Of a stretch of DNA of 49,750 nt, positions 10,592 through 44,036 are shown piece after piece. The DNA comes from Acidobacteriota bacterium (GTDB lineage: Bacteria; Acidobacteriota; UBA6911; JACQSX01; JBPCNK01): positions 1 to 49,750 of the forward strand of contig JBPCNK010000093.1 in the NCBI GenBank assembly GCA_051001345.1. Reading direction: 5' to 3'. The notes below the pieces were generated by a model. That model was not told the DNA's origin. It saw only the letters and a list, made by a program, of their open reading frames with translations, and ran no database searches. The position numbers were made by a program, and so were the translations under genes. The stretch's first letter is position 1. Each line of letters opens with the position of its first letter.

Positions 10592-10638
10592 TCCCGCCGT
10601 GTTGCCCGTTCATCTTGCGACCGGCGACCGGCGACTGT
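10592..10638. repeat. ~47-bp repeat with GGCGACC heptamers; inverted copy at 12801-12847
   Basis: Its reverse complement ACAGTCGCCGGTCGCCGGTCGCAAGATGAACGGGCAACACGGCGG is nearly identical to 12801 ACAGTCGCCAGTCGCCGGTCGCCAGATGAACTAGGCAACAGGGCGG. Confidence 0.8.
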
Positions 10639-10721
10639 CGACTTTTTGGTGCGGCTATGCCGCGCTGGAACTGGCAGCAATTGTTGGCTCATTTAGCGAA
10701 ATTCGTGTTAACTAGGGACTT

Positions 10722-11516
10722 ATGTCCGCAGTTGTGACCAGGGCGCTTCAGTTGAAAGATCTCGTCTGGCAAATGACCTTGCGAGAACTCCGGGGGAGGT
10801 ATGTGGGCAGCGCCATGGGGTTGTTCTGGAGCGTGCTCCATCCTATGATCACGCTGGTAGTTTGGACGTTTGTGTTCTCCTACATTCTGGACATTCGCTT
10901 CAGCGCGGAAGGGGGCATCACAAGCTTCGCGCTTTATCTGTTTTGCGGGATGGTACCTTTTCTCTCCTTCCAGGAAACCGTCCAAAACTGCACCGTCTCG
11001 GTTACAGGGCATGCACCCCTGGTCAAGAACCTGGTCTTCTCTTCAAAGTCCTTGCAGCTCTCCATCGCCGTGGCGGCGCTGGTCACCCAGTTGATCGGGC
11101 TTGCAATCCTGGCTGGCGCTCTGGTCCTGGTGCGCCAGCAGGTTCCAGTCTATTTGCCCCTTGTCTTGCCGTTTGCATTCATCCTGATGTTGTTCAGCCT
11201 GGGACTGGGCTTTCTCACCTGCACGCTGCACGTATTCCTTCGGGACACCTCGCAGTTGGTAGGAGTCATGCTCATGGTCTGGCTTTACGCCACTCCGATC
11301 TTCTATCCGGCCCACGCGCTTCCGTCCCATTTGCAGTTTCTGATTTATGTCAACCCGCTGGCGTATGTGGCCAACGTCTACCGTTCCATGATCTTGCTGG
11401 GAAATCTTCCCTCGGCGCAGGGGTTCTTGATTTTTGTGGGGATTTCGGTGGGGACGTTCTTGTTGGGTTACCGGGTCTATACGAAGAACTATCCGAAGTT
11501 TATTGATGAGCTTTAG
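10722..11516 (+). CDS. wzm: Polysaccharide export ABC-2 permease
   Basis: RELRGRYVGSAMGLFWSVLHP, YATPIFYP and NPL motifs; upstream of wzt. Confidence 0.93.
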   Translation: MSAVVTRALQLKDLVWQMTLRELRGRYVGSAMGLFWSVLHPMITLVVWTFVFSYILDIRFSAEGGITSFALYLFCGMVPFLSFQETVQNCTVSVTGHAPLVKNLVFSSKSLQLSIAVAALVTQLIGLAILAGALVLVRQQVPVYLPLVLPFAFILMLFSLGLGFLTCTLHVFLRDTSQLVGVMLMVWLYATPIFYPAHALPSHLQFLIYVNPLAYVANVYRSMILLGNLPSAQGFLIFVGISVGTFLLGYRVYTKNYPKFIDEL

Positions 11517-11572
11517 CGGAATTGTCAATCGTATTCACCGCGCGTCAGTGGCCACTAACTCAACGACTACAC

Positions 11573-12799
11573 ATGATTCACGCTCATAACCTAAGCAAGA
11601 AGTTTCGGATTTATCGCCGCCCCTCCGAGCGACTCAAGGAAGCCTTGTCGTTTGGAACGCGTTCGTATCACACCGAATTCACTGCTCTGGATGGTGTGGA
11701 CCTGAACGTGGAAAAAGGAGAGACCGTAGGTCTGATAGGGCAGAACGGGTCGGGGAAAAGCACGCTTCTGAAAATCATGGCCCGGTTAATGCTCCCAACC
11801 AGTGGCAGTGTTGAGGTCAAGGGCAGAGTCGCGTCGTTGATCGAGTTGGGAACCGGATTTCATCCGGAGTTCACCGGCCGATCCAACATCCACATGATTG
11901 CGACGTTGATGGGATTCTCCAGGGAGCAAGTTGATCGCCTGGTGCCGGCAGTACTGAATTTCTCAGGCCTCCATGAATTTATCGACAGACCGTTGAAGAC
12001 CTATTCTTCGGGAATGTGGGTACGGCTCGCCTTCTCGATGGCGATCTCGGTAGACCCGGATGTCTTCCTGATTGACGAAGCTCTGGCGGTTGGCGACATG
12101 CTGTTCCAGCAAAAATGCGTCGCCAAGCTCAGGGAATTCCAAGAACGAGGGACAAGCATCGTTTTTGTGTCTCACGACCTTGGGGCGGTCAAGACTCTTT
12201 GTGACCGCGCCGTTCTTCTGGATAGCGGGAAGAAAATTCGCGAGGACTCTCCTGAAGCAATCTGCTCCGAGTACATCTCCTTGATGGCCCAGCGCGCCAG
12301 CCGGGAGAAGTTTTCAACCCGTGTGGATGCTCACCACCGGCGCTACGGCAACTATCAAGCCGAAATTGAGCGGGTCGAGCTTTCAAACGCAAAAGGAGAA
12401 ACCACGGAAGTTCTGATTTGCGGCGAGAGATGCGTGGTGGACGTCGTGGTGAAGGTTTCTGGGGCGATCAGGCAATCTTCGGTCGGCATCTTGATCCGGG
12501 ATCGGCTGGGCAATGACATCTTTGGGACCAATACGTTTCTCAGTGGGGTACGCATTGAGGACGATCTTGAAGATTTCACCGTGAGATTTGAGTTCGACAT
12601 GGACTTGGGACAGGGCAATTACTATTTGAGTGCTGCCGCCCATTCCGGACGCGATCACTTGGCGGATTGCTACGACTGGATCGATAATGCCGTTGCGTTT
12701 CAGGTACTGCCTACGGTGCCCGAGTTTTTGGGCTATGCGCGGCTGAAACCAAAAATCTCTGTCCTTTCAAGTGTTCGAAAGTCAGGGGTCGGGAGCTGA
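11573..12799 (+). CDS. wzt: Polysaccharide export ABC ATPase with C-terminal Wzt_C domain
   Basis: GQNGSGKST Walker A, TYSSGM signature, IDEALAVGD, extended C-terminal domain. Confidence 0.95.
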   Translation: MIHAHNLSKKFRIYRRPSERLKEALSFGTRSYHTEFTALDGVDLNVEKGETVGLIGQNGSGKSTLLKIMARLMLPTSGSVEVKGRVASLIELGTGFHPEFTGRSNIHMIATLMGFSREQVDRLVPAVLNFSGLHEFIDRPLKTYSSGMWVRLAFSMAISVDPDVFLIDEALAVGDMLFQQKCVAKLREFQERGTSIVFVSHDLGAVKTLCDRAVLLDSGKKIREDSPEAICSEYISLMAQRASREKFSTRVDAHHRRYGNYQAEIERVELSNAKGETTEVLICGERCVVDVVVKVSGAIRQSSVGILIRDRLGNDIFGTNTFLSGVRIEDDLEDFTVRFEFDMDLGQGNYYLSAAAHSGRDHLADCYDWIDNAVAFQVLPTVPEFLGYARLKPKISVLSSVRKSGVGS

Positions 12800-12800
12800 C

Positions 12801-12910
12801 ACAGTCGCCAGTCGCCGGTCGCCAGATGAACTAGGCAACAGGGCGGAAGGCGCTCCGTGGCCGGCCCGGCGCTGCCTACTGCCTACTTTGGTTGCGGGTG
12901 GCCGAGCTGA
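12801..12910. repeat. Inverted partner of 10592-10638 plus CTGCCTA heptamers
   Basis: CAGTCGC/CGGTCGC tandem units; CTGCCTACTGCCTAC; TTTGGTTGCGG motif also seen near 10643. Confidence 0.75.
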
Positions 12911-12931
12911 GTCTTTGTTCCGAGATAACCC

Positions 12932-13741
12932 ATGATCGATGGCAAGAAACTGGTTGTAGTGCTGCCCGCCTACAATGCGGCCCAGACTTTAAGAGTCACC
13001 TACTCGGAACTCCCGTTGAAGCTGGTCGATGAAGTGCTCCTGGTCGATGACGCCAGTATCGATGAAACCGTTGCGGTTGCCAGAGAACTGGGAATAAAGA
13101 CGTTCGTGCACACCGAAAATCTAGGGTACGGTGGAAATCAAAAAACCTGTTATCGCGAGGCGTTGAGGGTTCAGGCTGAAATCGTTGTCATGGTCCATCC
13201 GGATTATCAATACACTCCCAAACTGGTCGGAGCGCTGGCGTCGATGATTGCCAGTGGTGAATATGATGTAGTTCTGGGATCGCGAATCCTGGGGGGCACG
13301 GCCCGAGCGGGCGGAATGCCCTTGTACAAGTATGTTTCCAACCGTTTTCTTACGACATTTCAAAATCTTCTGCAGGGCGCGAAGCTCTCCGAGTACCACA
13401 CCGGATTCCGGGCGTTCAGCAAAATGGTCCTGGAGACCCTGCCGCTGGAGGAAAACTCCAATGACTTTGTATTTGATAACCAGATGCTGGCGCAGGCGCT
13501 GGTATTTGGATTTCGCGTCGGCGAGATCAGTTGTCCGACGCGTTATTTTCCCGAAGCTTCCTCCATCAACTTCTTTCGGTCAGTGCGTTACGGGCTGGGA
13601 GTGGTAAAGACGTCCCTGGACGTTTGTGCGAAGCGTCTGGGGCTGACCAGTCCCCGCTATCTCTCACCGACGGGTACGAAATTGCGCCGGGCTGGCGACG
13701 GAGCAAAAACCGTCACGAATGACACAAATGAACACGAATGA
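12932..13741 (+). CDS. GT2 polyprenol-phosphate glycosyltransferase (DPM1-like)
   Basis: [35 protein letters not shown] motifs; last codons and stop come from the adjacent repeat. Confidence 0.92.
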
Positions 13742-14047
13742 CACGAGCGCCACTGCTCCTTGGCCATTCTCAGCGCTTGCATCTTTCGGGTCATTCGAGA
13801 CAATTCGTGACTGGCTTTTTGAGTTTTTCGGCATCGTGGGGCTTGGGCAATTGGGTAAAAGCTTAGTCACGAATTACACGAATTACACGAATGACACGAA
13901 TGACACGAATGGCACGAAAGAACCCTTGCACTGTAGCCGCCTGGCTCTGGCACGCGCTTGAATCAAGATTCGTGATCATTCGTTACATTCGTGAAATTCG
14001 TGACTAACTTTTTGCTTTTTTGTGAATAATCCGGGCTGCAGAATCCT
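13705..14047. mobile_element. Composite of two nonamer-arm elements ending TGTGAATAATCCGGG-CTGCAGAATCC
   Basis: ACACGAAT(G/T) arrays; inverted relatives at 17117-17302 and 18422-18668. Confidence 0.85.
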
Positions 14048-14054
14048 GGAGGCA

Positions 14055-15236: not shown

Positions 15237-15334
15237 TGGCACGATGGATTGGACCAAATGATAATGGAAAAAACGGGTTGCTGACAGCCGAAAGCTGGTG
15301 GCGACCGTTCGCCTAGGATGACAATCGACAACCG

Positions 15335-17100: not shown

Positions 17101-17116
17101 CGGGCTGGCGAGTGGT

Positions 17117-17302
17117 CTAGGATTCTGCAGCCCGACTATTCACAAAAAAGCAAAAAGCTAGTCACGAATTTCACGAATTTAACGAATTATCACGAATCCT
17201 TGATTCAGGCGGGTTGCCGGTTCGGAGCCAGGCAGATAGTGCAAAGCTTTTTTCGCGTAATTCGTGTAATTCGTGTAATTCGTGACTAAGCTTTTACCCA
17301 AT
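17117..17302. mobile_element. Nonamer-arm element, inverted sister of 13851-14047
   Basis: CTAGGATTCTGCAGCCCGACTATTCACAAAAAAGCAAAAAGCTAGTCAC...GTGACTAAGCTTTTACCCAA. Confidence 0.87.
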
Positions 17303-17826: not shown

Positions 17827-18381
17827 ATGACGCCCACAAGGCCTGAACTGAAGTTTACCTACGAAGACTACCTCTTGTTGCCCGAAGATAAGCGGTACGA
17901 GCTCATCGACGGAGATCTCTGCATGGTTCCTGCTCCCAGTTTGTATCACCAGATCGTCTGTCGCCGCATCGGTGTAGCCCTCACCCAATTTGTAGACGAC
18001 CGTGATCTGGGAGAAGTGCTGTGGGCGCCCTGCGATGTTTACCTTTCCCAATTCGACGTGGTGCAGCCCGATATGTTCTTCATAACGTCCGAGAGGCGCG
18101 GCATTATGAAGGAAGCGTTTGTTGAGGGGACACCCGATCTCATCGTGGAAATCATTTCTCCGTCCGATCCAAAGAAAGACCGGGATCTGAAGCGGAAGCT
18201 CTACGCGCGCTTCGGCGCGCGTGAATATTGGATTGTCGATCCGGCGGCGAGAAGCATCGATGTGCTGGTCCGGGAGGAAGACGACTTGAAGGTACTGCAG
18301 ATCTTCGTGGTGGAGGAAACGTTGAAATCAATGCTACTGCCGGATTTCCGGCTTCCTTTTGGGGGTGTCTTCGCCCGATAG
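17827..18381 (+). CDS. Uma2/DUF820 family PD-(D/E)xK endonuclease
   Basis: RYELIDG, P..HQ, VVQPD, PDLIVEIISPS, DR..K..LYARFG.REYWIVDP. Confidence 0.95.
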   Translation: MTPTRPELKFTYEDYLLLPEDKRYELIDGDLCMVPAPSLYHQIVCRRIGVALTQFVDDRDLGEVLWAPCDVYLSQFDVVQPDMFFITSERRGIMKEAFVEGTPDLIVEIISPSDPKKDRDLKRKLYARFGAREYWIVDPAARSIDVLVREEDDLKVLQIFVVEETLKSMLLPDFRLPFGGVFAR

Positions 18382-18421: not shown

Positions 18422-18668
18422 GTGACCAGGTTTTTCCTCTGCCACGGCCTCGCGACACCGGAAAAGCAAAAAAGCTAGTCACGAATTCCACGAATTTAAC
18501 GAATTATCACGAACCTTAATTCAGGCGGGTTGCCGGTCCAGAGCCAGGCAGCCGAAGTGCAAAGATCGTTTCGTGTCATTCGTGTAATTCGTGACTAAGC
18601 TTTTTTCGAATTGCCCGAGCCCCGCGATGCCGAAAAAGTCAAAAGGCCAGTCACGAATTGTCCCGAAC
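18422..18668. mobile_element. Nonamer-arm composite element, largely the reverse complement of 13790-14010, truncated at the brnA start codon
   Basis: Shared internal GCCCGAGCCCCGCGATGCCGAAAAA and TTCAGGCGGGTTGCCGG cores. Confidence 0.83.
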
Positions 18669-19368: not shown

Positions 19369-19923
19369 TTACGGTTTGAAAATGTTGGACAGCGAAAGCT
19401 TGAACTCCTGCAGGAGAGGCGAACTCAAATTGTCGTCCGCCACGAACACCTGGACGGTTTTCAGGTCGCCTTCCTGTCGCGTGAGCACGTCGACGGTTTT
19501 GGCGTCGGGGTCGACGATCCAATACTCGCGCACACCAAAGCGAGCGTAGAGTTTGCGTTTAAGTTCGCGGTCTCTTTTCGGATCGGAGGGCGAAAGGATC
19601 TCAACGACCAGATCAGGAGCCCCGTCAACGTAAGGGCCTTTGATGATGCCCAGCCGATCCGAAGAGACCCACAGAATATCGGGCTGTACGACGTCGTACC
19701 TTGAAAGATAGACATCGCATGGGGCGGCAATCACCTGCCCAAATAGGTTCTTATCGACGAAGTCGTTTAGCGCCGCTCCCATTCTCACTGAGACGATTTG
19801 ATGGAAGGTCCTGGGAGCGGGAACCACATAGAGGTCTCCGCCGATAAGTTCGTAGCGCTTCTCTTCGGGGAGTAGAAGATAGTCGTCGTAGGTGAACTCT
19901 AGTTCGGGTTTCGTGGGCGTCAT
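19369..19923 (-). CDS. Uma2/DUF820 family endonuclease (paralog of 17827-18381)
   Basis: Same motifs; both 184 aa with near-identical N-termini. Confidence 0.95.
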   Translation of the reverse strand: MTPTKPELEFTYDDYLLLPEEKRYELIGGDLYVVPAPRTFHQIVSVRMGAALNDFVDKNLFGQVIAAPCDVYLSRYDVVQPDILWVSSDRLGIIKGPYVDGAPDLVVEILSPSDPKRDRELKRKLYARFGVREYWIVDPDAKTVDVLTRQEGDLKTVQVFVADDNLSSPLLQEFKLSLSNIFKP

Positions 19924-20607: not shown

Positions 20608-23600
20608 ATGAAACACATGGCTCACGTCTCCGGCCGTTTGGGTTTGCTGGAGGAGGCGCTGCTGCAGGCGCTCGTTGACGCCAAGAAAAAAGATCCCTTC
20701 AAACCGCTGACCGTTCTGGTCGGATCGCGCCTGGTGGGCTTGTATCTGCAGCGTGCGCTGGCGTTGCGCGGCAACTCCCATCTCAATATCGACTGGCCGA
20801 CGCCGCCGGAGCTGGCGCGCAGAATCGCCGGCCCCTGCGGCGAGACGCTGTCTCCCGTGGCGGAAGCCTTCCTCGTTAGAAAACTGAAGGCGCGGGGATA
20901 CTTCGACCCGGTGGCCGAACGGCGCGGCTTCTACCGGGTTCTCCACGCCACATTGAAAGATCTTCGCGACGGAGGATTCCGTAGTTGTCCGGTTCCATCA
21001 GGTGATTCCAACGGCAAGATTCGGGAAGTAGCGCAGCTTCATAAGAGGTATCTGGCGGCGCTTGAGGGATTTGTAGACGACGCTGGTGTATTGGACAGAG
21101 CCGCCGCCAGCAGTGTGTCCTTTGACCGTCTGTGGATCTACGGTTTATATGACTTCACCGAGATGCAGCGCCGGCTGATCGAGGCAATCGCCCGGCAGGT
21201 TCCAGTGGAATGCTTCTTTCTGGAACACGAGTTTTCCAAGCCGACTCTGGAGTGGTTCGAGTCGATCGGGTTTGAGAAGAGCGTCGAGAAAAGCCGCAGG
21301 CTTGTCGAAAAAAGCCGCAGGCTGGAAGCCTGCGCTACTGCAACCTGTGTCGTGCTGAGTGCTTCGACCGAAGTTCGCGAGGTCACCGAAATCGCGCGCG
21401 AGATCTACAAGATGTGCCGCGACGAGAATTATCATTTTCACGAGATCGGCGTGGCGCTGCGCAATTCCGAAGAATACTCCGCCTTGTTCCAGCAGGTTTT
21501 CGAAAACCTCGGAATACCAGCGTTTGTCCAGAAAGGAAACAATCTAGCGGCGCACTCGCTGGGGCGCGCCGTGCTGCTGCTCGTCGACCTGGCGCAATCG
21601 GAATACCGGCGCGAGGCGGTCGTCGAGTGGGTCAAGTTTGCCGAAGTCCAACAGGCGGCGCTGTGGGACCGGCTCAGTCTTGAGGCCGGCGTCACTGAGG
21701 GCAAAGAGAACTGGCGCAGAAAATTGAAGTCACTGAAGGGCGCTTATTACCGCAGGCGCCGCAGACTGCGAGCCGAACGCGGCATTCTGGACGAGTCCAC
21801 ACCCGATCCGCCCGACGTCGCCTTGCCGGCCGGTGAGCAAGCGCTGCTCGACCGGATTAAGGCGATCGACGAGTTCGTGAGTTTTCTTTCCCGTCTGTTT
21901 CAGCATCTGGAAAGCCTGCCGCCAGTTGCGTCTTGGAGCCGTTTCTCAAAACTGGCCGATCAACTCGTGCAGTATTTCCACCCGCGCGACCCTGATCTGG
22001 AACGAGTGTCCGAGGCGCTTGCCAGCCTGGCGCAAATCGAGCGGCTGGAAGCGGAGACGACCTTTGCGACGTTTCGCGAAATGGTCCACGAGGCATTCGA
22101 GCAGGTCAGCTGGCACTCGGGCGCCTTCCAGCGAAACGCTGTCAGCGTATTCGCCTTGATGGCAGGCCGAGGCGTTCGTTTTCGGGCGCTGTTTGTACCC
22201 GGAATGGTCGAGAAATCGTTTCCAGCGCAAGTCCGCCAGGACCCGATTCTGCTCGATGAAGAACGAAAGCAAATCAACACGTTCGGCCAGGGACGGCTGC
22301 CCCTGAAGTTGTCACGACTGGACGAAGAAGCGCTTCTGTTCGATCTGATCCAGGACTCGGCCACCGAGCGCGTACTGTTTTCGTACCCCCGCATGGATGC
22401 CGCCACCGGACGGGACCGTGTCCCTTCTCCCTTTCTTTTGAAGCTGCACTCCCCGCCGCTTGAGACCTACGACGCCCTGTCGAGATTGCCTGGCTTTCGC
22501 AGAGTGGGAACCTCCGAAGTGGCGCCCCAGCGCGCCGCCGATTCGCTTCGCCGGCAGGAATACGACCTGTATTGCATCCAGCGTTCGACCGGCGAAGAAC
22601 GCAAGGACCTGGGCCGTTACCTGATGCGCGCTGATCCGTGGCTGCGGCGTTCGCTTGTGGCGCACGAGACGCGTTTTTTCTCGGGGACCTTCACGCCCTT
22701 TGACGGAATCGTATCCTCTCGGCTGAGCCGGGGGCGCCTGGCGGCGCGATTCGACCCGGAGAGCCACACATTCTCCGCCACGCAACTGGAAACCTATGCC
22801 ACGTGCCCTTATCGCTTTTTCCTGCGCGATGTGTTGCGTCTCGATCCACAACGAACTGAGGAAACCATCCAGGGCCTTACCGCTCTGGACCGGGGCTCGC
22901 TGGCCCATGAAATCCTGCGCGATTTCTTCTCGCGCGTCAGCCCGCCGCTCGACCCGGACCAAAAGCAGGAGCTGTCCGACAAGCTCAATCGAACGATCGA
23001 ACAGCACTTCGCGCGCGCCGAGGCCGAAGGCATTACCGGCTATCGCCTGCTGTGGGAGATGGATCGGCAGCGGCTGCGCGAAGACCTTCTAGAACTTCTC
23101 GACCGGGAGCTGGCCGAAAGCCGCTGGATACCGGCTGAATTTGAAGTCTGGTTTGACACCATCGTGGTCGATTCGCCGGTCGGGCCGGTGCGCTTCAAAG
23201 GGAAGGTGGACCGAATCGATCGCTCCGGCGGATACACAGGACAGGGCGCGGCGCCACAGGCCGTGCGAGTCATTGATTACAAGACAGGAAAGGTTTACCA
23301 AAAAGTGAAGGCTCCTTTTGGCGGTGGACGCTCGCTGCAGCTTCCCATCTACATGTTGGCGGCTCAGCAGCGCTACGGTCTCTCCGACATGGAGCGGTCC
23401 ATTGCAGAGTATTACTTTATTTCGCGCCGGCAGAAGTTTAAGAAAATTGAATTTCCGGGCAGGGACTGGCCGCGCCAATCCGCGTCGCTCAGCCACGTTG
23501 CGGGAACGCTTGTGGCGGGAATTCTTCAGGGACAATTCTTTCCATTTCCCGGCCACGACGCCGAGAACTGCAAATTCTGTGATTTTCGGTCGGTCTGCGA

Positions 23601-23685
23601 CCGAAGAGTTGTGACCCTGTTCGACAAGAAGCGGGATGATCCTGTGGCGGAGAATTTCCTCGGCTTGAAAAAAGAGCCGGAATAG
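20608..23685 (+). CDS. addB: AddB-like nuclease subunit (inactive helicase fold + PD-(D/E)xK nuclease with 4-Cys Fe-S staple)
   Basis: SATQLETYATCPYRFF, RGSLAH, GKVDRID, IDYKTG, LQLPIY, C..C.....C; precedes an AddA-like gene. Confidence 0.85.
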   Translation: MKHMAHVSGRLGLLEEALLQALVDAKKKDPFKPLTVLVGSRLVGLYLQRALALRGNSHLNIDWPTPPELARRIAGPCGETLSPVAEAFLVRKLKARGYFDPVAERRGFYRVLHATLKDLRDGGFRSCPVPSGDSNGKIREVAQLHKRYLAALEGFVDDAGVLDRAAASSVSFDRLWIYGLYDFTEMQRRLIEAIARQVPVECFFLEHEFSKPTLEWFESIGFEKSVEKSRRLVEKSRRLEACATATCVVLSASTEVREVTEIAREIYKMCRDENYHFHEIGVALRNSEEYSALFQQVFENLGIPAFVQKGNNLAAHSLGRAVLLLVDLAQSEYRREAVVEWVKFAEVQQAALWDRLSLEAGVTEGKENWRRKLKSLKGAYYRRRRRLRAERGILDESTPDPPDVALPAGEQALLDRIKAIDEFVSFLSRLFQHLESLPPVASWSRFSKLADQLVQYFHPRDPDLERVSEALASLAQIERLEAETTFATFREMVHEAFEQVSWHSGAFQRNAVSVFALMAGRGVRFRALFVPGMVEKSFPAQVRQDPILLDEERKQINTFGQGRLPLKLSRLDEEALLFDLIQDSATERVLFSYPRMDAATGRDRVPSPFLLKLHSPPLETYDALSRLPGFRRVGTSEVAPQRAADSLRRQEYDLYCIQRSTGEERKDLGRYLMRADPWLRRSLVAHETRFFSGTFTPFDGIVSSRLSRGRLAARFDPESHTFSATQLETYATCPYRFFLRDVLRLDPQRTEETIQGLTALDRGSLAHEILRDFFSRVSPPLDPDQKQELSDKLNRTIEQHFARAEAEGITGYRLLWEMDRQRLREDLLELLDRELAESRWIPAEFEVWFDTIVVDSPVGPVRFKGKVDRIDRSGGYTGQGAAPQAVRVIDYKTGKVYQKVKAPFGGGRSLQLPIYMLAAQQRYGLSDMERSIAEYYFISRRQKFKKIEFPGRDWPRQSASLSHVAGTLVAGILQGQFFPFPGHDAENCKFCDFRSVCDRRVVTLFDKKRDDPVAENFLGLKKEPE

Positions 23686-23987
23686 GCCGGAGTAGGCCTG
23701 GAGTAGGCCGGATTATTCAGAAAAAAGCTAGTCACGAATTACACGAATTACACGAATGAACACGAACGTTCTCAGCACCAGCGGTGGAACCGATATATTT
23801 CGCGCCCAGTCGGGATAATTCGTGACTAGCTTTTTGCTTTTTGCGAATAGGTTAGGTACTCGGATTATTCACAAAATAAAAAACTTAGTCACGAATGATA
23901 GAAATTTGTGAACAGGCGCTGAAGTGCAAAGGTTTTTCGTGTAATTCGTTTAATTCGTGTAATTCGTGACTAAGCTTTTTTGTGAAT
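23686..23987. mobile_element. Two tandem nonamer-arm elements between addB and addA
   Basis: TAGGCCGGAG-type stutter x3 leading into GCCGGATTATTCA; second unit starts CTCGGATTATTCACAAAA at 23859. Confidence 0.87.
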
Positions 23988-24007
23988 GTCAGAGCCGGAC
24001 GAACTCG

Positions 24008-27000
24008 ATGACGTCGAACACTGAACCCCTCGACCTGGTTGACCAACGCGACCGCGATCGGGCTTGCCGCGATCTCGATTCCAGCCTTGTCGTCGAGGCG
24101 GGAGCAGGGACGGGGAAAACAACGGTGCTGGTCAGCCGGGTACTTCACATTCTGGAATCCCAGCGGGCGGCCCTTCCTGAAATTGTCGCCATTACGTTCA
24201 CGGAGAAGGCTGCCGGCGAGTTGAAGATTCGTTTGCGCGAAGAGATCGAAAAGAGGGGACTGCGCGAGCCGCTGCAGCAACTTGACAGGACCAACGTCTC
24301 GACCATTCATGCCTTCGCCTCCGCGCTGCTGCGCGAACGCCCGGTCGAAGCCGGCGTCGATCCGGGCTTTGAACAACTGGACGCGCTGTCGGGAACTCTG
24401 CTGGAGGAAGAGCTCTGGAAAGAATGGATCGGCCTTCAGTTGGAATCCGCCCACCCGGTTTTGAAGGATGCCTTGGCATCCGGCATCACCATCAAACACA
24501 TGAGAGGGATGGCCAGCCAGCTGTATGAGAACCGGGATGTTGCCGAAGGACTTGGGGCCGTAGAGCCTGTCGAGCTACTCGATCGGGTATTGCACTGGTT
24601 AGCAGGCCAGGGATCAGGGGTCAGGGGTCAGGGGTCAGGGAGGGGTCAGGGGTCAGGGGTCAGGGGGCTGCCGGCTGCCGACTGCCTACTGTCGTTTGTG
24701 TCGTTCGCCCAGCGGGAGAAGGAACGGCGCGGGCTGGTGGATTTTCAGGATCTGCTGATTAAGGCGCGCGACATGCTGCGCGACAATCGCGAGGCGCGCC
24801 GGTACTTCCAATCGAGGTTCAAATACATCCTCGTCGACGAGTTTCAGGATACCGATCCGCTGCAGGTCGAAATCGTCTTTTTCCTGGCGGAGGAGCGACC
24901 GTTGGCCGACTCGTGGCGGAGCGTGCAGCTCAAACCGGGAAAGTTATTTGTGGTGGGCGACCCCAAGCAATCGATTTATCGCTTTCGCCGGGCCGATATC
25001 GAAATGTACGCGCAAGCCCGGCGCCAGATTTGCGGCCAAAACGAGCCGCTGAAGATCGTCCAGAATTTTCGCAGCGTGCCCGCCGTGATCGGTTGGATCA
25101 ACGAAGCCTTCAGCAAATTGATCGTTCCTTCCGATTACCAGCCTTCCTACGAGCCGCTTGCCGCGGCGCGCCAATTGCCCGCATCCGTACCCGCGCGGCC
25201 CTCGGATGCAGCGCTGCGACCGCGCGTGCTATTTCCCAGCAATGCAAAGGAACAACCCGCTTCCGCCCCCGAATATCGCGCAGCCGAAGCGGATGTTATC
25301 GCCCAGGTCGTGCTCGCGGCGTTGGAGGAACAGTGGACGATCACGGAAAAGAGCGGCGGGGTGCGGCCGGTGCGACGGCGTGATATTGCAATACTATTTG
25401 GCCGCTGGAGCAAGGAGATCGACATCTATGAGGCGGCCCTGCAGGCGCACGGACTGGCCTATCACATGGACGGCGGCAAGAATTTTTTCGTCCGGCAGGA
25501 AGTTCGTTCTCTGGCGGCCTGCCTGTCGGCGGTAGAAGATCCGATGGACGCCGTGGCGCTGGTAGGCGCCCTGCGCTCTTCGTTCTTCGGCTTCTCCGAT
25601 GAAGATTTGTTTTTGGTTGTTTCAGGCGGGAAAAAACTCAATTACCTGGAAGATCCCGGCGAAGAATGGCCTGAACTGCGCGCAGGGTTCCGACTGCTGC
25701 GATCGCTGCACGAAGAACGCAACCGCAAGACGATTTCACAGACTGTCGACGGACTGCTGGACTCGACGCGTGCGCTCCAGGCGTTGGCGCTGCAGCCGTA
25801 TGGCGATCAGGCCGTTGCCAACCTGTTGAAAGTCGCCGAACAGGCTCGCGCGTTTGATCGGCAGAGGCTGACAACGTTCGGGCGGTTTGCGCGCTGGATT
25901 TCCAAAATGGAAGACGAGCAGAAGGACGAAGCCGAGTCGGCTCTGATCGAAGCGGAGGAAGATGTTTTGCGGTTGTTTACGATCCACCGTGCCAAGGGTC
26001 TGGAATTTCCGGTGGTCATTCTTGCCAACTTGAATTTTGGCAAAGCTCGCGCCGATCGGCTGATTGTCGAGCACGTAGGCGCGAAGCTTCACGCCCGGAT
26101 CGAAGTGCAATCCGAGGACGGCAAGTCGCTTACGCTTGCAACTTCGGACTTCGAAGACGCGGTCGAACGCGAGCGCCAGCGCGAAGCCGATGAATTGAAG
26201 CGGCTCTTCTATGTCGGCGCGACTCGCGCCCGAGACTACCTGGTACTTCCGGTCCTGCCGTATCAGAAGAAGCCGGTTGGTTTTCTTCAAATGTTGTTGG
26301 AGAGCCAGACGGCGGTCCCCTCGCAAATCAGCAGGCGATTGGGTGAACCCCCTCCTCCTCTGAAGATTGATTTAGCCGATCAGGCCGACTACGACCCGGG
26401 CATTCTGCTCGAGCGCAAACAGTGGGAAGCCGAGCGGGAAAACACCTGGCAGCGGGCCCGGGGCGGAATCGAGTGGGCCAGCGCGACAAGCCAAAAGGAC
26501 GCGCTCTGGGAGGAACTCGAAACCGAGCATTGGGGCACAGGCGACGGAACGGCGCTGGGAGCCGCCTTTCACGAAATCATGGATCAGATCGACTGGAGCG
26601 ATCCGGCTGGCCTCGATCAACTTTGCCGGGATCGCGCCGGTTTCTTTGGGATCTCCGCCCGAGCCGCTTTGCTGGAAGAGATGGCGCGCTGGTGTTTGAA
26701 AAGTGATCTGGTCAGGCGGGCGCTGGCCTCGCAGAATTACTGGAAAGAGATGCCGTTCGCCTGTTTTGATCCGCCGCGGATGATGGAGGGCGCAATGGAC
26801 CTCGTCTTCCGGGAACCCGGCGGCTTGGTCATTGTCGACTTTAAGACGGACGCCACCCCGAAACGTCTCGAATCGGTCTACCGGATCCAGGGCGAAACCT
26901 ACGCGCGCGCGCTGACAAAGATCACAGGCCAGGCGCCGCGAGAGGTCTGGTTTCTATTTGTGCAAGCCAAGACTGCCGAGCGGCTGGAGTTGGGCAAGGG

Positions 27001-27019
27001 GCAGATGAAGTTGTTTTAG
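24008..27019 (+). CDS. addA: AddA-like UvrD helicase-nuclease
   Basis: AGAGTGKT, ITFTEKAA, TIHAF, VDEFQD, VGDPKQSIYRFR, QNFRS, TIHRAKGLEF, YVGATRA, C-terminal G..D.....VDFKT nuclease. Confidence 0.92.
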   Translation: MTSNTEPLDLVDQRDRDRACRDLDSSLVVEAGAGTGKTTVLVSRVLHILESQRAALPEIVAITFTEKAAGELKIRLREEIEKRGLREPLQQLDRTNVSTIHAFASALLRERPVEAGVDPGFEQLDALSGTLLEEELWKEWIGLQLESAHPVLKDALASGITIKHMRGMASQLYENRDVAEGLGAVEPVELLDRVLHWLAGQGSGVRGQGSGRGQGSGVRGLPAADCLLSFVSFAQREKERRGLVDFQDLLIKARDMLRDNREARRYFQSRFKYILVDEFQDTDPLQVEIVFFLAEERPLADSWRSVQLKPGKLFVVGDPKQSIYRFRRADIEMYAQARRQICGQNEPLKIVQNFRSVPAVIGWINEAFSKLIVPSDYQPSYEPLAAARQLPASVPARPSDAALRPRVLFPSNAKEQPASAPEYRAAEADVIAQVVLAALEEQWTITEKSGGVRPVRRRDIAILFGRWSKEIDIYEAALQAHGLAYHMDGGKNFFVRQEVRSLAACLSAVEDPMDAVALVGALRSSFFGFSDEDLFLVVSGGKKLNYLEDPGEEWPELRAGFRLLRSLHEERNRKTISQTVDGLLDSTRALQALALQPYGDQAVANLLKVAEQARAFDRQRLTTFGRFARWISKMEDEQKDEAESALIEAEEDVLRLFTIHRAKGLEFPVVILANLNFGKARADRLIVEHVGAKLHARIEVQSEDGKSLTLATSDFEDAVERERQREADELKRLFYVGATRARDYLVLPVLPYQKKPVGFLQMLLESQTAVPSQISRRLGEPPPPLKIDLADQADYDPGILLERKQWEAERENTWQRARGGIEWASATSQKDALWEELETEHWGTGDGTALGAAFHEIMDQIDWSDPAGLDQLCRDRAGFFGISARAALLEEMARWCLKSDLVRRALASQNYWKEMPFACFDPPRMMEGAMDLVFREPGGLVIVDFKTDATPKRLESVYRIQGETYARALTKITGQAPREVWFLFVQAKTAERLELGKGQMKLF

Positions 27020-27021: not shown

Positions 27022-27282
27022 AGTGGCCAGTGGTCGGTGGCCAGTGGCCAGCCGGCAGAGTGTGGCTGCGCTAGCAGAGCAGTCGGATTATTCACAAAAA
27101 AGCTAGTCACGAATTACACGAAAGCCTTTGCTCTTCAGCGCCCGCCCACAGATTCGTGAACATTCACGAATTATCCCGAATGGACGCGAAATATATCGGT
27201 TTCCGCCACTGGCGCTCAGAACGTTTCGTGATCATTCGTGTCATTCGTGAAATTCGTGACCAGGTTTTTGCTTTTTTGTGAA
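27022..27282. mobile_element. AGTGGCC heptamer arm (27022-27055) and nonamer-arm element (27083-27282), the latter a fused inverted copy of 23707-23987
   Basis: Cores CTTCAGCGCC and GCGAAATATATCGG are reverse complements of cores in 23707-23987. Confidence 0.85.
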
Positions 27283-27751: not shown

Positions 27752-27779
27752 TTGCATCGAACGACGGACCATCCGGGTG

Positions 27780-28094
27780 CTCGAATCATTCACAAAAAAG
27801 CTAGTCACGAATTACACGAATTATCCCGAATGACACGAAACATAGATAGAGGTTCGACAACTGGTGCTGAAAGCCGTGTTGAAAACTGCAAGCCCGGCCC
27901 AAAGGTGCTCAAAGCCGTTCCATTAGATTCGTGATAATTCGTGAAATTCGTGAAATTCGTGACCAGGTTTTTGATTATGTGAATAATCCGGGTACCCCAT
28001 TTATTCACCAAAGCAAAAACTAGTCACAAGTGACCGGTAGCAAGAATACAAGTAAAAGCCTCAGCCCTAACTGGCCACTGGCCACCGGCCACTG
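27780..28094. mobile_element. Nonamer-arm element (27780-27992), TA, partial left end (27995-28028) and GGCCACT heptamer arm (28071-28094)
   Basis: TGTGAATAATCCGGG-TA-CCCCATTTATTCAC junction; core related to 1714-2128. Confidence 0.85.
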
Positions 28095-37190: not shown

Positions 37191-37280
37191 GGAGGAGTGG
37201 GTGAGCGGCTGAAACCGGCGGTCTTGAAAACCGCTGTACCCGTAAGGGTACCGTGGGTTCGAATCCTACCTCCTCCGCCA
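37191..37280 (+). tRNA. tRNA-Ser (anticodon UGA)
   Basis: GGAGGAG acceptor, GCGGT-CTTGAAA-ACCGC anticodon arm, long variable arm, GGTTCGAATCC, 3' GCCA. Confidence 0.97.
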
Positions 37281-37330
37281 TTCAAGGGGCAGGTGACAAG
37301 GGGCAGGAATACAAGTGAATCAAGGAAAAT

Positions 37331-37604: not shown

Positions 37605-37961
37605 GTGCGATATGTAGATGGATATGTTTTGCCCGTCCCGAAGAAAAAATTGCAGGAATACCGCCGCATCGCGGAGAAGGCAGGCAAAGTTTGGCGGAAG
37701 CACGGCGCCCTGGAGTTCCGGGAATGCGTTGGCGACGACCTCAATGTGAAGATGGGAGTTCCGTTCCCGCGCATGGTCAAGCTCAAGCGCGGGGAGACCG
37801 TGATTTTCTCGTTTATCGTATTCAAGTCGCGCGCGCATCGCGACAGCGTCAACGCCAAGGTGATGAAGGATCCGGCAATGGCCGACATGATGGAAATGCC
37901 GATGCCCTTCGACGACAAGCGCATGGTCTACGGCGGTTTCAAGATTCTGGTCGACGCTTAG
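37605..37961 (+). CDS. DUF1428 (YbaA-like) protein
   Basis: YVDGYVLPVP, GALEFRECVGDD, MPFDDKRMVYGGF; AAGGAG RBS before GTG. Confidence 0.92.
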   Translation: MRYVDGYVLPVPKKKLQEYRRIAEKAGKVWRKHGALEFRECVGDDLNVKMGVPFPRMVKLKRGETVIFSFIVFKSRAHRDSVNAKVMKDPAMADMMEMPMPFDDKRMVYGGFKILVDA

Positions 37962-37963
37962 GG

Positions 37964-38093
37964 GCAGGCTCCAGGCTCAAGGGAATTGCGGATTGCGAAT
38001 TGCGGATTGGGGATTGATTGTGATTGAACGACACCGCAACGTCTTTCCAATTCGCAATTGCCTGGGGCCTGAAGCCTGAAGCCTGGAGCCTGC
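37964..38093. repeat. Composite heptamer hairpin element; inverted copy at 38796-38912, further copy at 41250-41365
   Basis: CAGGCT(T/C) arms around ATTGCGG/CCGCAAT with shared loop GGAAAG...GCGGTGTCG. Confidence 0.85.
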
Positions 38094-38121
38094 GTTCTGA
38101 CACATATCTAAGGAGGAACCT

Positions 38122-38796
38122 ATGAAGGCTTATCGTTGGGCGATTGCCTCGGCAACGTTGGTGCTGTTGCAGGGGACAGGTCTGGCCCAGGACCCCGTCA
38201 AGGTCGCAGCCACGCAGTACAAAGTTGTTGCCGAAGACTCCACCGTACGCGTGCTGGAGGCAACGCTGGCCCCGGGCGCCAAAACGGCCATGCATACTCA
38301 TCCTTATCTTGTCGCCGTGATGCTCGAAGCGGGTTCAGTACGCTGGACGATGAAGGACGGCAGTGTTGTCAACTCCCAACCGGGCGAGAAACGGGGCACG
38401 GTCCTTGCCATGGATGCGCAGTCGCATGCGGCTGAGAATACCGGGAAAACGACGGCGCGGGTCATCCTCGTGGAATTCAAAAAACCAGCTCCGGCCGCAG
38501 GCAAGGCCCGCAATCCGACGATGCCGTCGCCCTTCAAGACGGTTGCCGACACCCCGTACGCCCGTGTCTTCGAAGGGGAAGTGGCGCCGGGCCAAAGTAC
38601 GCCGCAACACACGCATTTCAGTGACCATATGCTTCTCTCGCTCAATGACGGCACCGCCGAAGCCGTCGGCGCCGATGGCCAAAAGCAGATCCTTGTCATG
38701 AAGAAGGACACTCCAGTGTTGGCAAAAGCGGGCTCCCACCGGACCACTAACACCGGCAAGACCGCGACAAGGGTCGTGATTGTTGAACCTAAGTAG
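38122..38796 (+). CDS. Secreted bi-cupin protein
   Basis: Signal peptide; two PG..T..HTH ... H...NTG.....VI.VE.K cupin repeats; AGGAGG RBS. Confidence 0.85.
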   Translation: MKAYRWAIASATLVLLQGTGLAQDPVKVAATQYKVVAEDSTVRVLEATLAPGAKTAMHTHPYLVAVMLEAGSVRWTMKDGSVVNSQPGEKRGTVLAMDAQSHAAENTGKTTARVILVEFKKPAPAAGKARNPTMPSPFKTVADTPYARVFEGEVAPGQSTPQHTHFSDHMLLSLNDGTAEAVGADGQKQILVMKKDTPVLAKAGSHRTTNTGKTATRVVIVEPK

Positions 38797-38912
38797 CAGG
38801 GGTCGGGCTTCAGGCGTCAGGCTCCAGGGAATTGCGGATTGGAAAGGCACTGCGGTGTCGCTCAATCCGCGATCAATCCGCAATCCGCAATTGTTTGGAG
38901 CCTGAAGCCTGC
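38796..38912. repeat. Inverted copy of 37964-38093
   Basis: Reverse-complement similarity across arms and loop. Confidence 0.85.
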
Positions 38913-38927
38913 TATGGAGTAATCAAC

Positions 38928-39020
38928 ATGCCCAGGGTTATCCATTTTGAAATCCACGCCGAGAATCCCGAACGCGCCATTGCGTTTTACAAGAAGGCTT
39001 TCAACTGGGAGTTTACAAAA
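38928..39020 (+). pseudogene. VOC/glyoxalase gene truncated after ~31 codons by a repeat element
   Basis: MPRVIHFEIHAENPERAIAFYKKAFNWEFTK, then element sequence. Confidence 0.8.
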
Positions 39021-39262
39021 ATAAAGAGCCTAGTCACGAATTACACGAATGATACGAATTACACGAAAAAAGCTTTGCCGTTCAGCTGCTTGGCTCAAAA
39101 CCGGGATCCCGTCTGAATCAGTGTTCGTGATAATTCGTTAAATTCGTGAAATTCGTGACTAGGTTTTGCATTTTGTGAATAATCCTACGAATTACGAGTT
39201 TACGAATTACAAGGCTAAATCCGCAATCCCCTGGAGCCTGAGGCCTGGAGCCTGAAGCCTGA
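39012..39262. mobile_element. Nonamer-arm element (39012-39185; same subfamily as 13851/17117/18465) followed by heptamer arrays
   Basis: CTAGTCACGAATTACACGAAT...ATTCGTGACTAGGTTTTGCATTTTGTGAATAATCC. Confidence 0.85.
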
Positions 39263-39285
39263 GAGAAACCAGCTACAATTAAGGT

Positions 39286-41247: not shown

Positions 41248-41403
41248 ATCAGGCTCCAGGCTCCAGGGTCGTTGCAGAATTGGGAAGGCGCCGCGGCGTA
41301 GGCCAATCCGCAATCAATCCGCAACCCGCAGTTACCCTGAAGCCTGAAGCCTGAAGCCTGAAGCCCGTGCTACAATTCGCCCACCACCTGGGAGGAACAC
41401 GCC

Positions 41404-42024
41404 ATGCTGAAGAGGCTGTTACGGAGCAGGCAAAACGAGTTTTTCGGGATGCTTATCGAGATCGGCGACAATGTTGAAAAGGGCGTGGAGTTGCTCGCAC
41501 AGTTGGTTAGTTCCCCGCGCGATGCGGATGTTCTTATCAGCCAGATCAAACAGCTCGAGACGCGCGGAGATGACCATACGCGCGCGCTGGTTCGCGCGCT
41601 CAATTCCACTTTCATCACACCCTTCGACCGCGAAGACGTCCACAAACTGGCTGAAATGATGGACGACATCCTCGATTACGCCAACGAAACCGCCACCCGT
41701 TTCAAGCTATTCGGGATGGTCGATCCCGTCCCGGATTTGATCGCCATGACGCAAGTGTTCCGTGAACAGGCCCAGCACCTGGCCGCCGCAATGAGGCGTC
41801 TGGAGAACCATCGCGAGTTGTTCGATTTGTGCGCCCGTGTAGACGAATTGGAAACAAGGGCCGACCACATTTACAACGCCGCCATCGCGCGCCTGTTTCA
41901 ACAGAAGCTCGACCCGATCGAACTGATCAAGCAGAAGGACTTGATCGAGATCCTCGAAAAAGGCACCGACGAGTGCGAAGACATTTCCGATCTGATCAAA
42001 TCCATCGCCATCAAATACGCCTGA
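41404..42024 (+). CDS. DUF47 (PhoU-like) phosphate transport regulator
   Basis: E.RGD, TFITPFDRED, DDILD, E..AD, E...D.CED motifs; upstream of PiT. Confidence 0.92.
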   Translation: MLKRLLRSRQNEFFGMLIEIGDNVEKGVELLAQLVSSPRDADVLISQIKQLETRGDDHTRALVRALNSTFITPFDREDVHKLAEMMDDILDYANETATRFKLFGMVDPVPDLIAMTQVFREQAQHLAAAMRRLENHRELFDLCARVDELETRADHIYNAAIARLFQQKLDPIELIKQKDLIEILEKGTDECEDISDLIKSIAIKYA

Positions 42025-42039
42025 GTCACACCCTCTGCC

Positions 42040-43047
42040 ATGGATCAACTTTCTGCCTACGCGCTGATCATCATTCTGATTGCGCTCGCCTTTGACTACA
42101 TCAACGGATTCCACGACGCCGCCAACTCGATCGCGACGGTTGTATCGACGCGTGTTCTGACGCCCCGTCAGGCCGTCGTCTGGGCGGCCTTTTTTAACTT
42201 TATTGCCGCCTTCTTCTTTGGGACGGCTGTCGCCAGGACGATCGGCAAGGGGATGATGGACATCAACCTGGTGACCAACGAGGTCATACTCGGAGGGCTG
42301 ATCGGCGCGATCTCCTGGAACCTGATCACTTGGTATTACGGGATTCCTTCCAGCTCTTCACACGCGCTGGTGGGCGGGTATGCGGGTGCAGCCGTGGCCC
42401 ACGCCGGTTTGGGCGTGATCATCCCTTCGGGCTGGGTGAAGACCGTGTTGTTTATCTTCCTGGCGCCGGCTATCGGCTACGCGCTGGGATACTTTCTGAT
42501 GGCGCTGGTCTATCTGACGCTAGGCCGCCAATCTCCATCGAAATTGGACCGCTATTTTCGAAAACTCCAGCTCTTGTCGGCGGCCGCCTACAGCCTTGGA
42601 CACGGCACCAACGACGCGCAGAAAACGATGGGAGTTATAACCGGGGTCCTGGTGACTTCCGGCTACCAGCAGAATTTTGAAGTTCCCTGGTCGGTGATCC
42701 TGACCTGTCATGCGGCGATGGGGTTGGGCACAATGTCAGGAGGCTGGCGTATCGTCAAAACGATGGGCAGCCGCATTACGCGGCTGACGCCGATGGGAGG
42801 CTTTTGCGCGGAAACTTCCGGCGCGGTCGCCATTATCGGGGCTGCCTTGGGCGGAATCCCCGTCAGCACGACGCACACAATCACCGGGTCGATCGTCGGT
42901 GTGGGCAGCGTCCACCGAACGTCAGCCGTACGCTGGGGCGTGGCCCGCCGGATCGTGTGGGCCTGGATACTGACGATCCCCATGTCGGCGCTGATGGCCG
43001 CGCTGGCCTATGGGATTGTGACGTTAGTCGTTAACGCGAGATCGTAG
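42040..43047 (+). CDS. pit: PiT-family inorganic phosphate transporter
   Basis: NGFHDAANSIAT, PSSSSHAL, HGTNDAQK, PVSTTH. Confidence 0.95.
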   Translation: MDQLSAYALIIILIALAFDYINGFHDAANSIATVVSTRVLTPRQAVVWAAFFNFIAAFFFGTAVARTIGKGMMDINLVTNEVILGGLIGAISWNLITWYYGIPSSSSHALVGGYAGAAVAHAGLGVIIPSGWVKTVLFIFLAPAIGYALGYFLMALVYLTLGRQSPSKLDRYFRKLQLLSAAAYSLGHGTNDAQKTMGVITGVLVTSGYQQNFEVPWSVILTCHAAMGLGTMSGGWRIVKTMGSRITRLTPMGGFCAETSGAVAIIGAALGGIPVSTTHTITGSIVGVGSVHRTSAVRWGVARRIVWAWILTIPMSALMAALAYGIVTLVVNARS

Positions 43048-43083
43048 AATTAAGGACTAAGGACTAAGGACGAGGGACGAACA

Positions 43084-43406
43084 GCGGTGCCCCGAGCGTA
43101 AGAACGTGTGAAAAAAATCGAGGCCACCCCATTTCTTTCGCCCCTCTGGGGCTCATGGAGGCGACGAACCCTAAACCCAGGGCTCGCGCCCTGGGCTCTA
43201 TTATTTGCCCCCTTCGGGGGCACGTCATTCGCCCTCCGCATCGCAGCGGTGAGAGCCGTTGGGCCGTCGCAGGAGTCGAAACGAAAGTAGCCCCGCAGGG
43301 GCGAAGGATTAAAGCCCAGGGCGTAGCCCTGGGTTTCCGTTCGTCGTTTTGACAAGCCCCGCAGGGGCGAAAGATTAAGCCCCGAGCGGTACGCTCGGGG
43401 CACCGC
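43084..43406. mobile_element. REP-palindrome MITE/BIME-like element; deleted derivative at 46108-46288
   Basis: Terminal IR GCGGTGCCC(C)GAGCGTA; internal GCCCCNNNGGGGC and CCCAGGGC..GCCCTGGG palindromes. Confidence 0.82.
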
Positions 43407-43482
43407 CGTCTACACCAACAGACCAAAACCAATTCAGTGGGCCGTTGCACGCGTCCATCGCTACACGATAGGATCTGTCTGG

Positions 43483-43902
43483 ATGTCGTCGCTACCGATA
43501 CGTGAGTTGCTCCGCCAGGCGGGCTGGGTGCCGGCGGCGGTTTTTGGTTTCCACGCTGTCCTCTCGCTGTCGGGCGCCTACCAACGTCACCCAGCGCTTG
43601 ATATCCCGATGCATATTGTTGGCGGAGCTGCGATTGCATTTTTCTTTGACCGTTGTTTCGTCCGTTTGGCCCGACCCGAAGTGTCATTGCAAATCGTAAA
43701 CATAGTCAGGAATTCGGTTGTCTTCGCACTGACGGTCTCGGCCGCGACATTCTGGGAATTTGGCGAGTTCTTGTTCGATCGCGCCTTCGGCACGCACACC
43801 CAGGCAGGCCTTGAGGACACGCTTTTCGATATGGTTTTGGGAATCATCGGCGGCGTTTCCTATCTGTGTGCGGCTGCCTGGGCGAGCAGGGCTCGGACTT
43901 GA
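43483..43902 (+). CDS. Small membrane protein (DUF2238/VanZ-like)
   Basis: DIPMHIVGG, WEFGEF, DTLFDMVLGIIGG. Confidence 0.75.
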   Translation: MSSLPIRELLRQAGWVPAAVFGFHAVLSLSGAYQRHPALDIPMHIVGGAAIAFFFDRCFVRLARPEVSLQIVNIVRNSVVFALTVSAATFWEFGEFLFDRAFGTHTQAGLEDTLFDMVLGIIGGVSYLCAAAWASRART

Positions 43903-43951
43903 TAAACGCGAGCACATAGGTGCCGCTTCGCGCCTGTCCTGCATCGAATCT

Positions 43952-44036
43952 CGTGAATTATCCGGGTTAGTCCTTAGTACTTCGTACTTCGTTCTTCGTA
44001 CTTCGTACTTCGTCCTTAGTCCTTTGTACTTCGTCC
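43952..44036. repeat. Solo terminus GTGAATTATCCGGG plus TTCGTAC/TTAGTCC heptamer array, inverted partner of TAAGGAC/GGACGA array at 43050-43080
   Basis: Directly visible. Confidence 0.8.

Follow-up and report, generated by a model that had tools for sequence, protein, structure and literature searches.

Inverted repeat pairs around genes in an Acidobacteriota genome are probably ordinary intergenic hairpin repeats with short-range copying

Introduction

Tandem heptamers of many unit types occupy the intergenic DNA of cyanobacteria, where they are known as short tandemly repeated repetitive (STRR) sequences. According to an excerpt of one account, MITEs (miniature inverted-repeat transposable elements) lie chiefly between genes and rely on external transposases (PMC11602168), and excerpts of two others describe repetitive extragenic palindromic (REP) sequences and REPINs as hairpin-forming doublets of inverted units that are extragenic, present in high copy number and vertically persistent (PMC3116915, PMC3337134). 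Here we analyse the interspersed repeats in a 49,750-nt stretch of DNA from an Acidobacteriota bacterium (contig JBPCNK010000093.1 of assembly GCA_051001345.1; hereafter the window), in which a preliminary description had noted six gene blocks, each with an inverted pair of matched repeats on its two sides, and had proposed that such repeats are either copied locally across genes or serve as termini of gene cassettes that are invertible or mobile. We conclude that the repeats of the window are probably ordinary non-autonomous intergenic hairpin repeats with short-range copying, and that the genes between them are probably ancestral, fixed residents.

The window is an entire contig (C93) of a fragmented metagenome-assembled genome (MAG) of 4.87 Mb in 378 contigs, with 59% G+C and 92.8% completeness, and the relatives compared belong at best to the same order (G001, G002 and G003), plus the Acidobacteriota MAG L015. 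Two main kinds of repeat were recognised, an element with 9-mer arms that we call F1 and hairpins with tandem heptamer arms. Like bacterial MITEs, for example those derived from IS630/Tc1-mariner elements, F1 is a short intergenic element without coding capacity that is present in many copies, bears terminal inverted repeats and folds into a hairpin, but it departs from them in its tandem 9-mer arms, which are unusual for a MITE, and in that a matching autonomous element was not found in the MAG. The window hairpins are like REPINs in being doublets of inverted units, extragenic, of high copy number and vertically persistent. However, in contrast to the association of REPINs with REP-associated tyrosine transposases (RAYTs), the strongest Y1 transposase gene here, on contig C75, carries its own palindrome rather than any of the window's repeat families. 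An excerpt of the work on Pseudomonas fluorescens (PMC3116915) reports tandem REPIN clusters with flanks, which the direct bias and flank carry-over described below resemble as far as that excerpt goes, and next-neighbour distances above 200 bp that match a random model, from which the spacing of F1 at 0.3-8 kb departs. Descriptions of these repeat families, or of heptamer intergenic repeats in Acidobacteria, were not found in the literature searched.

Results

Repeat content of the genome

Nearly every intergenic gap of the window held interspersed repeats. A blastn comparison of the window with the genome gave 4419 non-self high-scoring segment pairs (HSPs), gathered in 31 stretches, and Tandem Repeats Finder (TRF) reported 68 rows within it, chiefly of period 7 or 9. 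Repeat regions were built genome-wide from 15-mers occurring at least five times, a criterion used because 13-mers occurring at least four times proved too loose (29,678 regions), and this yielded 2257 regions covering 354,509 nt, 1891 of them intergenic, with intergenic hairpin repeats making up 7.3% of the genome's DNA. A simple model of codon usage served to call genes (3562, making 82% of the DNA coding); it is crude and missed the glycosyltransferase gene GT4b. Repeat regions occupied 332 of 489 convergent, 240 of 509 divergent and 894 of 2186 co-directional gaps between the called genes.

Folded as single-stranded DNA, both kinds of repeat gave long hairpins (z-scores -6.5 to -7.5 relative to shuffled sequences). 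Because each element is itself a hairpin, any pair of copies of one family gives an inverted arm-to-arm match, and their relative orientation can be read from the loop only. With gaps so widely occupied and elements self-complementary, same-family inverted matches routinely flank genes.

In an alignment of 24 copies, F1 was 160-260 nt long, with terminal inverted repeats, a variable loop, no open reading frame (ORF) and several subfamilies. One end opens with CCGGATTATTCACA and the other closes with TGTGAATAATCCGG; the ends read CCGGATTATTCACAAAA...AGTCACGAATT, and the arms consist of tandem 9-mers (CACGAATTA). Left and right end motifs matched the genome 208 and 191 times, respectively, and TRF gave 494 period-9 rows genome-wide; in the relative G002, 42 matches to F1-like ends were found. 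CTAGC preceded 23 of 109 left ends and GCTAG followed 20 of 106 right ends. Insertion at the TA of CTAG is characteristic of IS630, and the flanking sequences appear compatible with a TA or CTAG target, although equally with a longer inverted repeat.

Similarity and orientation of neighbouring copies

Every repeat region was compared with all others by blastn (2/-3 scoring, word size 13), and similarity was assessed for those intergenic regions that had 20 or more family matches. Of 571 directional pairs 0.3-8 kb apart, 112 lay within the mutual top 5%, compared with 5.0% of 173,850 pairs on different contigs. In 46 cases near neighbours were each other's best match of all, where 5.6 such cases were expected, and the effect faded past 8-16 kb. 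A stricter test, limited to HSPs in which 50 nt or more lay outside tandem arrays and covering 248 near pairs from 81 contigs (bootstrapped by contig), gave a top-5% share of 18.1% for near pairs (confidence interval (CI) 11.9-23.9%) and 4.9% for distant ones, and the expectation that neighbouring copies are more alike than chance was thereby borne out genome-wide for complex elements. Among 1397 cases of consecutive intergenic regions, 128 (9.2%, background 4.9%) had a family in common, 74 of them in direct and 54 in inverted orientation.

F1 was also clustered in position. There were 83 loci genome-wide scoring at least 60 bits to references from the window, 10 of them on the window contig against 0.85 expected, a count biased towards this contig by the origin of the references. 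Outside the window contig, 13 gaps between F1 neighbours measured 0.3-8 kb, compared with 5.4 +/- 2.1 in 500 random placements (maximum 13). As these data show, complex elements separated by no more than about 8 kb resemble each other more closely than distant copies do and are physically clustered. The proposal of local propagation is thus supported by neighbour similarity, by the best-match excess and by F1 clustering. On the other hand, the view that the pairs reflect pure chance and selection by the reader, with neighbours no more related than any other copies, is scarcely credible, as the bootstrap interval excludes 4.9%, best-ranked partners lie nearby more often than expected, as just described, and F1 is clustered outside the window too. 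For complex elements this view is already refuted; it stands for heptamer arrays, for the reasons given below.

The preliminary description had led us to expect that neighbours would be inverted more often than controls, and this was not the case. The inverted share was 37.1% among near complex-element pairs (CI 29.8-45.5%) and 49.8% among distant ones, and the unique near pairs comprised 79 direct and 41 inverted, so that direct pairs were about twice as frequent. Segmental duplication was rejected as the origin of these sisters: an aligned flank of at least 80 nt was present in 13 of 120 near pairs, and after their removal the excess stayed, with 70 direct and 37 inverted pairs, including 16 direct and 6 inverted sisters. 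Coupling to gene direction was likewise rejected as the cause of the direct excess, since element orientation agreed with gene direction in 51-54% of cases, which is too weak. Repeats in bacteria originate for the most part as direct repeats lying close together, and the direct bias here recalls that tendency.

Near sisters halted at the family boundary in 48 of 58 comparisons, which is compatible with either local insertion or conversion between copies. In the other 10 of 58 the match ran at least 10 nt past the boundary, whereas among distant pairs it did so in 2.2% of 400 from the top 5% and in 5.7% of 297 of rank 1. Gene conversion between nearby older copies, in place of new local insertions, would agree with the boundary-respecting majority and with a similarity that is elevated for direct and inverted pairs alike and falls off as distance grows. 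We nevertheless consider it unlikely, because it leaves unexplained the sharing of families between near gaps (9.2% versus 4.9%), the physical clustering of F1 and a unique 15-mer common to the flanks of two F1 copies in the window (see below).

Heptamer arrays

TRF returned 2194 period-7 rows, which reduced to 2082 arrays without overlap, built of 84 canonical units; ACCCCTG (317), ACGGCAT (179) and ACTGGCG (169) were the most frequent. These arrays are, like STRR sequences, many-unit, intergenic and abundant, but they occur in the phylum Acidobacteriota and pair as the arms of hairpins. Among 829 pairs of arrays less than 300 nt apart, 392 were same-unit inverted and 28 same-unit direct; at this distance, same-unit inverted arrays form the opposite arms of a single hairpin. 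At 0.3-1 kb the excess was modest and both orientations were raised (43 of 302 inverted and 35 of 302 direct). At 1-8 kb, 359 of 4994 pairs were same-unit inverted (7.2%, against a background of 7.0%) and 366 of 4994 same-unit direct (background 6.8%). As these rates are at background, brackets of heptamers around genes are a chance coincidence, which is where the chance reading finds its support.

The same distances bear on the idea that the inverted halves are arms of one older hairpin, split by genes inserted into its loop. Two AGTGGCC arrays of the window (27022 and 28070) would suit it, lying just beyond the stop codons of two convergent genes with two F1 copies and two small ORFs between them. 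It is very unlikely all the same: same-unit inverted arrays 1-8 kb apart are at the background rate, the modest excess at 0.3-1 kb is accompanied by a rise in direct pairs, and the copies flanking the GT4-GT4-vanZ block, addA and the cupin gene (see below) are each complete hairpins with both arms.

The relatives G001 and G003 carry heptamer hairpins of different unit types in corresponding gaps. In addition, a CAGGGGT array of 8.9 copies lies at 24608-24666, within the long addA ORF. AddA proteins of relatives align on either side of this array and not over query residues ~170-216, and from this alignment gap we place the array in a lineage-specific, frame-keeping insert.

The six repeat pairs of the window

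The repeats and genes concerned, with the other F1 copies of the window, are as follows.

1904-2128, no strand assigned: F1 copy
3711-3866, no strand assigned: F1 copy
10588-10638, (+): GTCGCC-type array with a short unique part, upstream of wzm
10722-12799, (+): wzm-wzt ABC transporter genes
12801-12852, (-): inverted partner of 10588-10638, downstream of wzt
13794-14050, (+): F1 hairpin with a variant left end, left of the GT4-GT4-vanZ block
14033-14047, (+), and 17119-17133, (-): 15-mer past the F1 end, the two exact copies in the genome
14055-17100, no single strand: block of GT4 (-), GT4 (+) and VanZ (+)
17116-17302, (-): F1, inverted relative to 13794-14050, right of vanZ
18462-18667, (-): F1, direct relative to 17116-17302
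20608-27019, (+): addB-like and addA genes
23707-23987, (+): F1 doublet in the addB-addA spacer
27022-27051, (+): AGTGGCC heptamer array after addA
27083-27282, (-): composite F1 after addA, of which 27164-27272 is inverted relative to 23719-23825
27779-27995, (+): F1 of another subfamily, with a long loop
28070-28094, (-): AGTGGCC-type array, inverted relative to 27022-27051
37964-38093, (+): heptamer-armed hairpin upstream of the cupin gene, fold z -6.75
38122-38796, (+): cupin gene
38796-38912, (-): same family as 37964-38093, inverted, downstream of the cupin gene, fold z -6.47
39008-39190, (+): F1 of the youngest subfamily, 93-95% identical to copies on contigs C119, C62, C27 and C207, in a truncated glyoxalase-like ORF
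43043-43081, (+): TAAGGAC/GGACGAA heptamer array
43967-44036, (-): CTTCGTA heptamer array, inverted partner of 43043-43081

All six inverted matches exist where they had been placed, but only those around the GT4-GT4-vanZ block, addA and the cupin gene are substantial, and the other three are weak. Around the GT4-GT4-vanZ block, 13850-14050 matched 17302-17116 over 208 nt at 80.3% identity, with 159 bits for the inverted HSP and 48 for the best direct one, and each copy ranked the other high among its genome-wide loci (1 of 86 and 4 of 97). The addA pair (23719-23825 versus 27272-27164) matched over 109 nt at 87.2% (112 bits inverted, 55 for the best direct) with partner ranks of 2 of 111 and 2 of 60; at C11:3830-4045 there is a third copy, equally close or closer. 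The cupin pair (37998-38093 versus 38892-38796) matched over 97 nt at 83.5% (92.5 bits inverted, 48 for the best direct), with ranks of 7 of 139 and 3 of 145. It is for these three pairs that the flanking partners are, as had been supposed, more alike than most distant copies. For wzm-wzt they are not: the match of 52 nt at 86.5% had partner ranks of 131 of 157 and 16 of 33, the former as the chance reading would have it. The pair around the antitoxin module comprised 24 nt of GGCCAGT-type heptamers only and that around the REP+membrane gene block 39 nt at 79%, again of heptamers only; for both, the partner-to-partner match was absent from the window-versus-genome blastn.

A further point in favour of reader's selection is that the window holds ten complex-element pairs 0.3-8 kb apart, three inverted and seven direct, yet inverted pairs alone had been named. 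Three F1 copies of one variant (13794-14050, 17116-17302 and 18462-18667) form a local trio, the third of which is direct to the second. The first two, GT_L and GT_R, flank the GT4 block and differ in their outer ends. Beyond the element end in both of them, by the stop codons of GT4a and vanZ, lies the 15-mer GGGCTGCAGAATCCT, which has no third exact copy in the genome; matches with one or two mismatches numbered 14, against 11 for a reversed-pattern control.

Gene order in relatives

In G001 the gene order is FG-GAP (-), GT2 (+), GT4a (-), GT4b (+), with the order of GT2, GT4a and GT4b kept, and the matches to GT2 and GT4a end 41 nt apart, as compared with a 313-nt spacer holding F1 in the window. 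FG-GAP (-) is followed by wzm-wzt (+) in G003 and L015, as in the window, and the spacer between them measures 132 nt in L015 versus 494 nt in the window. Similarly, in both G002 and G003 addB adjoins addA on the same strand, and the matches are separated by 47-56 nt, versus ~367 nt in the window; neither was found in G001 with the queries used. No inverted block was seen among the loci compared in these order-level relatives (FG-GAP/wzm-wzt, GT2/GT4a/GT4b and addB-addA), and no close relatives turned up among metagenome contigs, where the proteins matched were 21-31% identical. The three loci keep their order and orientation in relatives, with much shorter spacers.

These observations bear on the suggestion that the inverted sister repeats delimit gene cassettes that are invertible or mobile, akin to composite transposons or invertons, with which the window has in common that genes lie between inverted copies of one repeat. 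The GT4 block, addA and the cupin gene do have truly inverted same-family copies with matching loops, GT_L and GT_R have the unique 15-mer in common, and G001 lacks wzm-wzt at the equivalent position. The suggestion is highly improbable nonetheless. Over the whole genome, direct near pairs outnumber inverted ones about two to one, and the bracketed wzm-wzt, GT and addB-addA genes hold their order and orientation in relatives; inversion of addA alone would break the conserved addB-addA pair. GT_L and GT_R, differing in their outer ends, provide no common termini, and the two addA copies are no closer to each other than to the third copy on C11. Consistent with the earlier statement that no recombinase or transposase specific to the repeats is present, Pfam scans of 37 window ORFs gave zero matches to such families. 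The direct excess, the chance-rate heptamers and the syntenic genes together argue against this half of the preliminary proposal. Of the outcomes that had been named in advance as refuting the proposal, two were obtained (neighbours not inverted more often, and genes syntenic) and one was not, as neighbours are more alike.

Search for a mobilising enzyme

Genome-wide, transposase families gave four IS630-type (DDE_3) genes, two DDE_Tnp_1 matches and five Y1_Tnp matches, with no genome match to DDE_Tnp_4. The best Y1 gene, which is RAYT-like (G000:C75:1958-2410, 88 bits), has the palindrome CCGCCCTCACGGGCGGGG on both flanks. This palindrome has five matches in the genome, three of them at the C75 locus, and is unrelated to F1 or to the heptamer hairpins. 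The search for transposases that had been suggested thus produced no RAYT link, the best Y1 gene being flanked by a private palindrome and not by window repeats. A 60-nt tandem array adjoins the same Y1 gene.

Other features of the window

A short ORF starting at 38928 reads directly into the F1 copy at 39008-39190 and has a sub-threshold match (19 bits, residues 3-34) to the N-terminus of a glyoxalase/bleomycin-resistance protein; it looks like a gene remnant, cut or interrupted by F1. Another repeat, of ~320 nt, has two window copies that are direct to each other (43083-43404 and 46107-46414) and 58 genome loci, including 23 near-full-length copies that are, at the median, 91% identical to the copy in the window. 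Within 43083-43404 lies a match to the Rfam Acido-Lenti-1 sRNA (43289-43333, (-)), and the Acido-Lenti-1 motif may here be part of a mobile or repeated element.

Two Uma2-family (PF05685) genes, the only two in the genome, lie 1 kb apart in opposite orientation at 17827-18381 (+) and 19369-19923 (-). Their proteins are 63% identical and both match one locus in G003, and the pair has the look of an ancient duplication in inverted orientation, its members separated by an F1 copy. Tandem paralogue pairs at 202-3712 and 4022-10227 encode PMT_2 glycosyltransferases and large FlgD_ig/CHU_C surface proteins; their DNA forms direct repeats of 72-87% identity ~3.09 kb apart, and this is a segmental tandem duplication that copied intergenic repeats too. 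A tRNA-Ser (UGA) at 37191-37280, over which a DUF5916 ORF was called, is 90-95% identical to stretches of G001 and G002. At 44052-46048, a BlaR1-type M56 peptidase fused to TonB_C domains adjoins a Penicillinase_R (BlaI-type) repressor gene, and the two are an ordinary sensor/repressor pair.

Discussion

Taking the census, the neighbour comparisons and the gene order together, we propose that the intergenic gaps of this genome have become saturated with non-autonomous, hairpin-forming interspersed repeats, namely MITE-like F1 and heptamer-armed hairpins, and that the apparent brackets would be a by-product of this rather than a functional unit. New copies would arise preferentially near the parent copy, as neighbour similarity and clustering suggest. 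A trans-acting transposase could carry out the copying step by local transposition, while in a minority of cases a segment carrying a few flanking bases may be copied, and the products would be direct about twice as often as inverted.

Several observations weigh against this proposal. Autonomous F1 was not found in this 92.8%-complete MAG, the eight ORFs between F1 ends 0.6-4 kb apart looking, as judged by eye, like housekeeping genes; the inverted ends seen at three of the four DDE_3 loci are unlike the F1 end; and no empty site was available to establish a target-site duplication for F1. The wzm-wzt block is absent between FG-GAP and GT2 in G001, which belongs to a different genus, so that a bracketed block does vary in presence; a wzm-wzt-like pair, 66-70% identical, lies ~230 kb off on the same G001 contig. 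The proposal does not account for the excess of direct orientation, and some of the direct pairs counted as intergenic may fall in genes missed by the crude gene calls. Finally, the boundary overruns and the unique GGGCTGCAGAATCCT imply that in those cases a segment had to be copied, and not the element alone.

It is these last two features, the genome-unique 15-mer at the GT4 block and the overruns in 10 of 58 comparisons, that make a candidate of short-range, direct-biased copying other than ordinary transposition, for example by template switching between hairpins at the replication fork. We hold this to be possible but doubtful. If true, it would mean that repeat families in this lineage become diverse at a local scale, one gap at a time, with no transposase dedicated to them.

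Whatever the copying step, we regard ordinary intergenic hairpin repeats around resident genes as the probable source of the pairs seen in the window. Gene cassettes without a recombinase would have mattered, and the genes here appear not to be so packaged. For readers of raw sequence, the case is a caution that palindromic repeats always resemble inverted brackets, and it is a caution likewise for those who assemble or annotate repeat-rich MAGs. To what is known of the spread of bacterial repeat families it adds a small data point, a measurable short-range propagation in which direct copies outnumber inverted ones.

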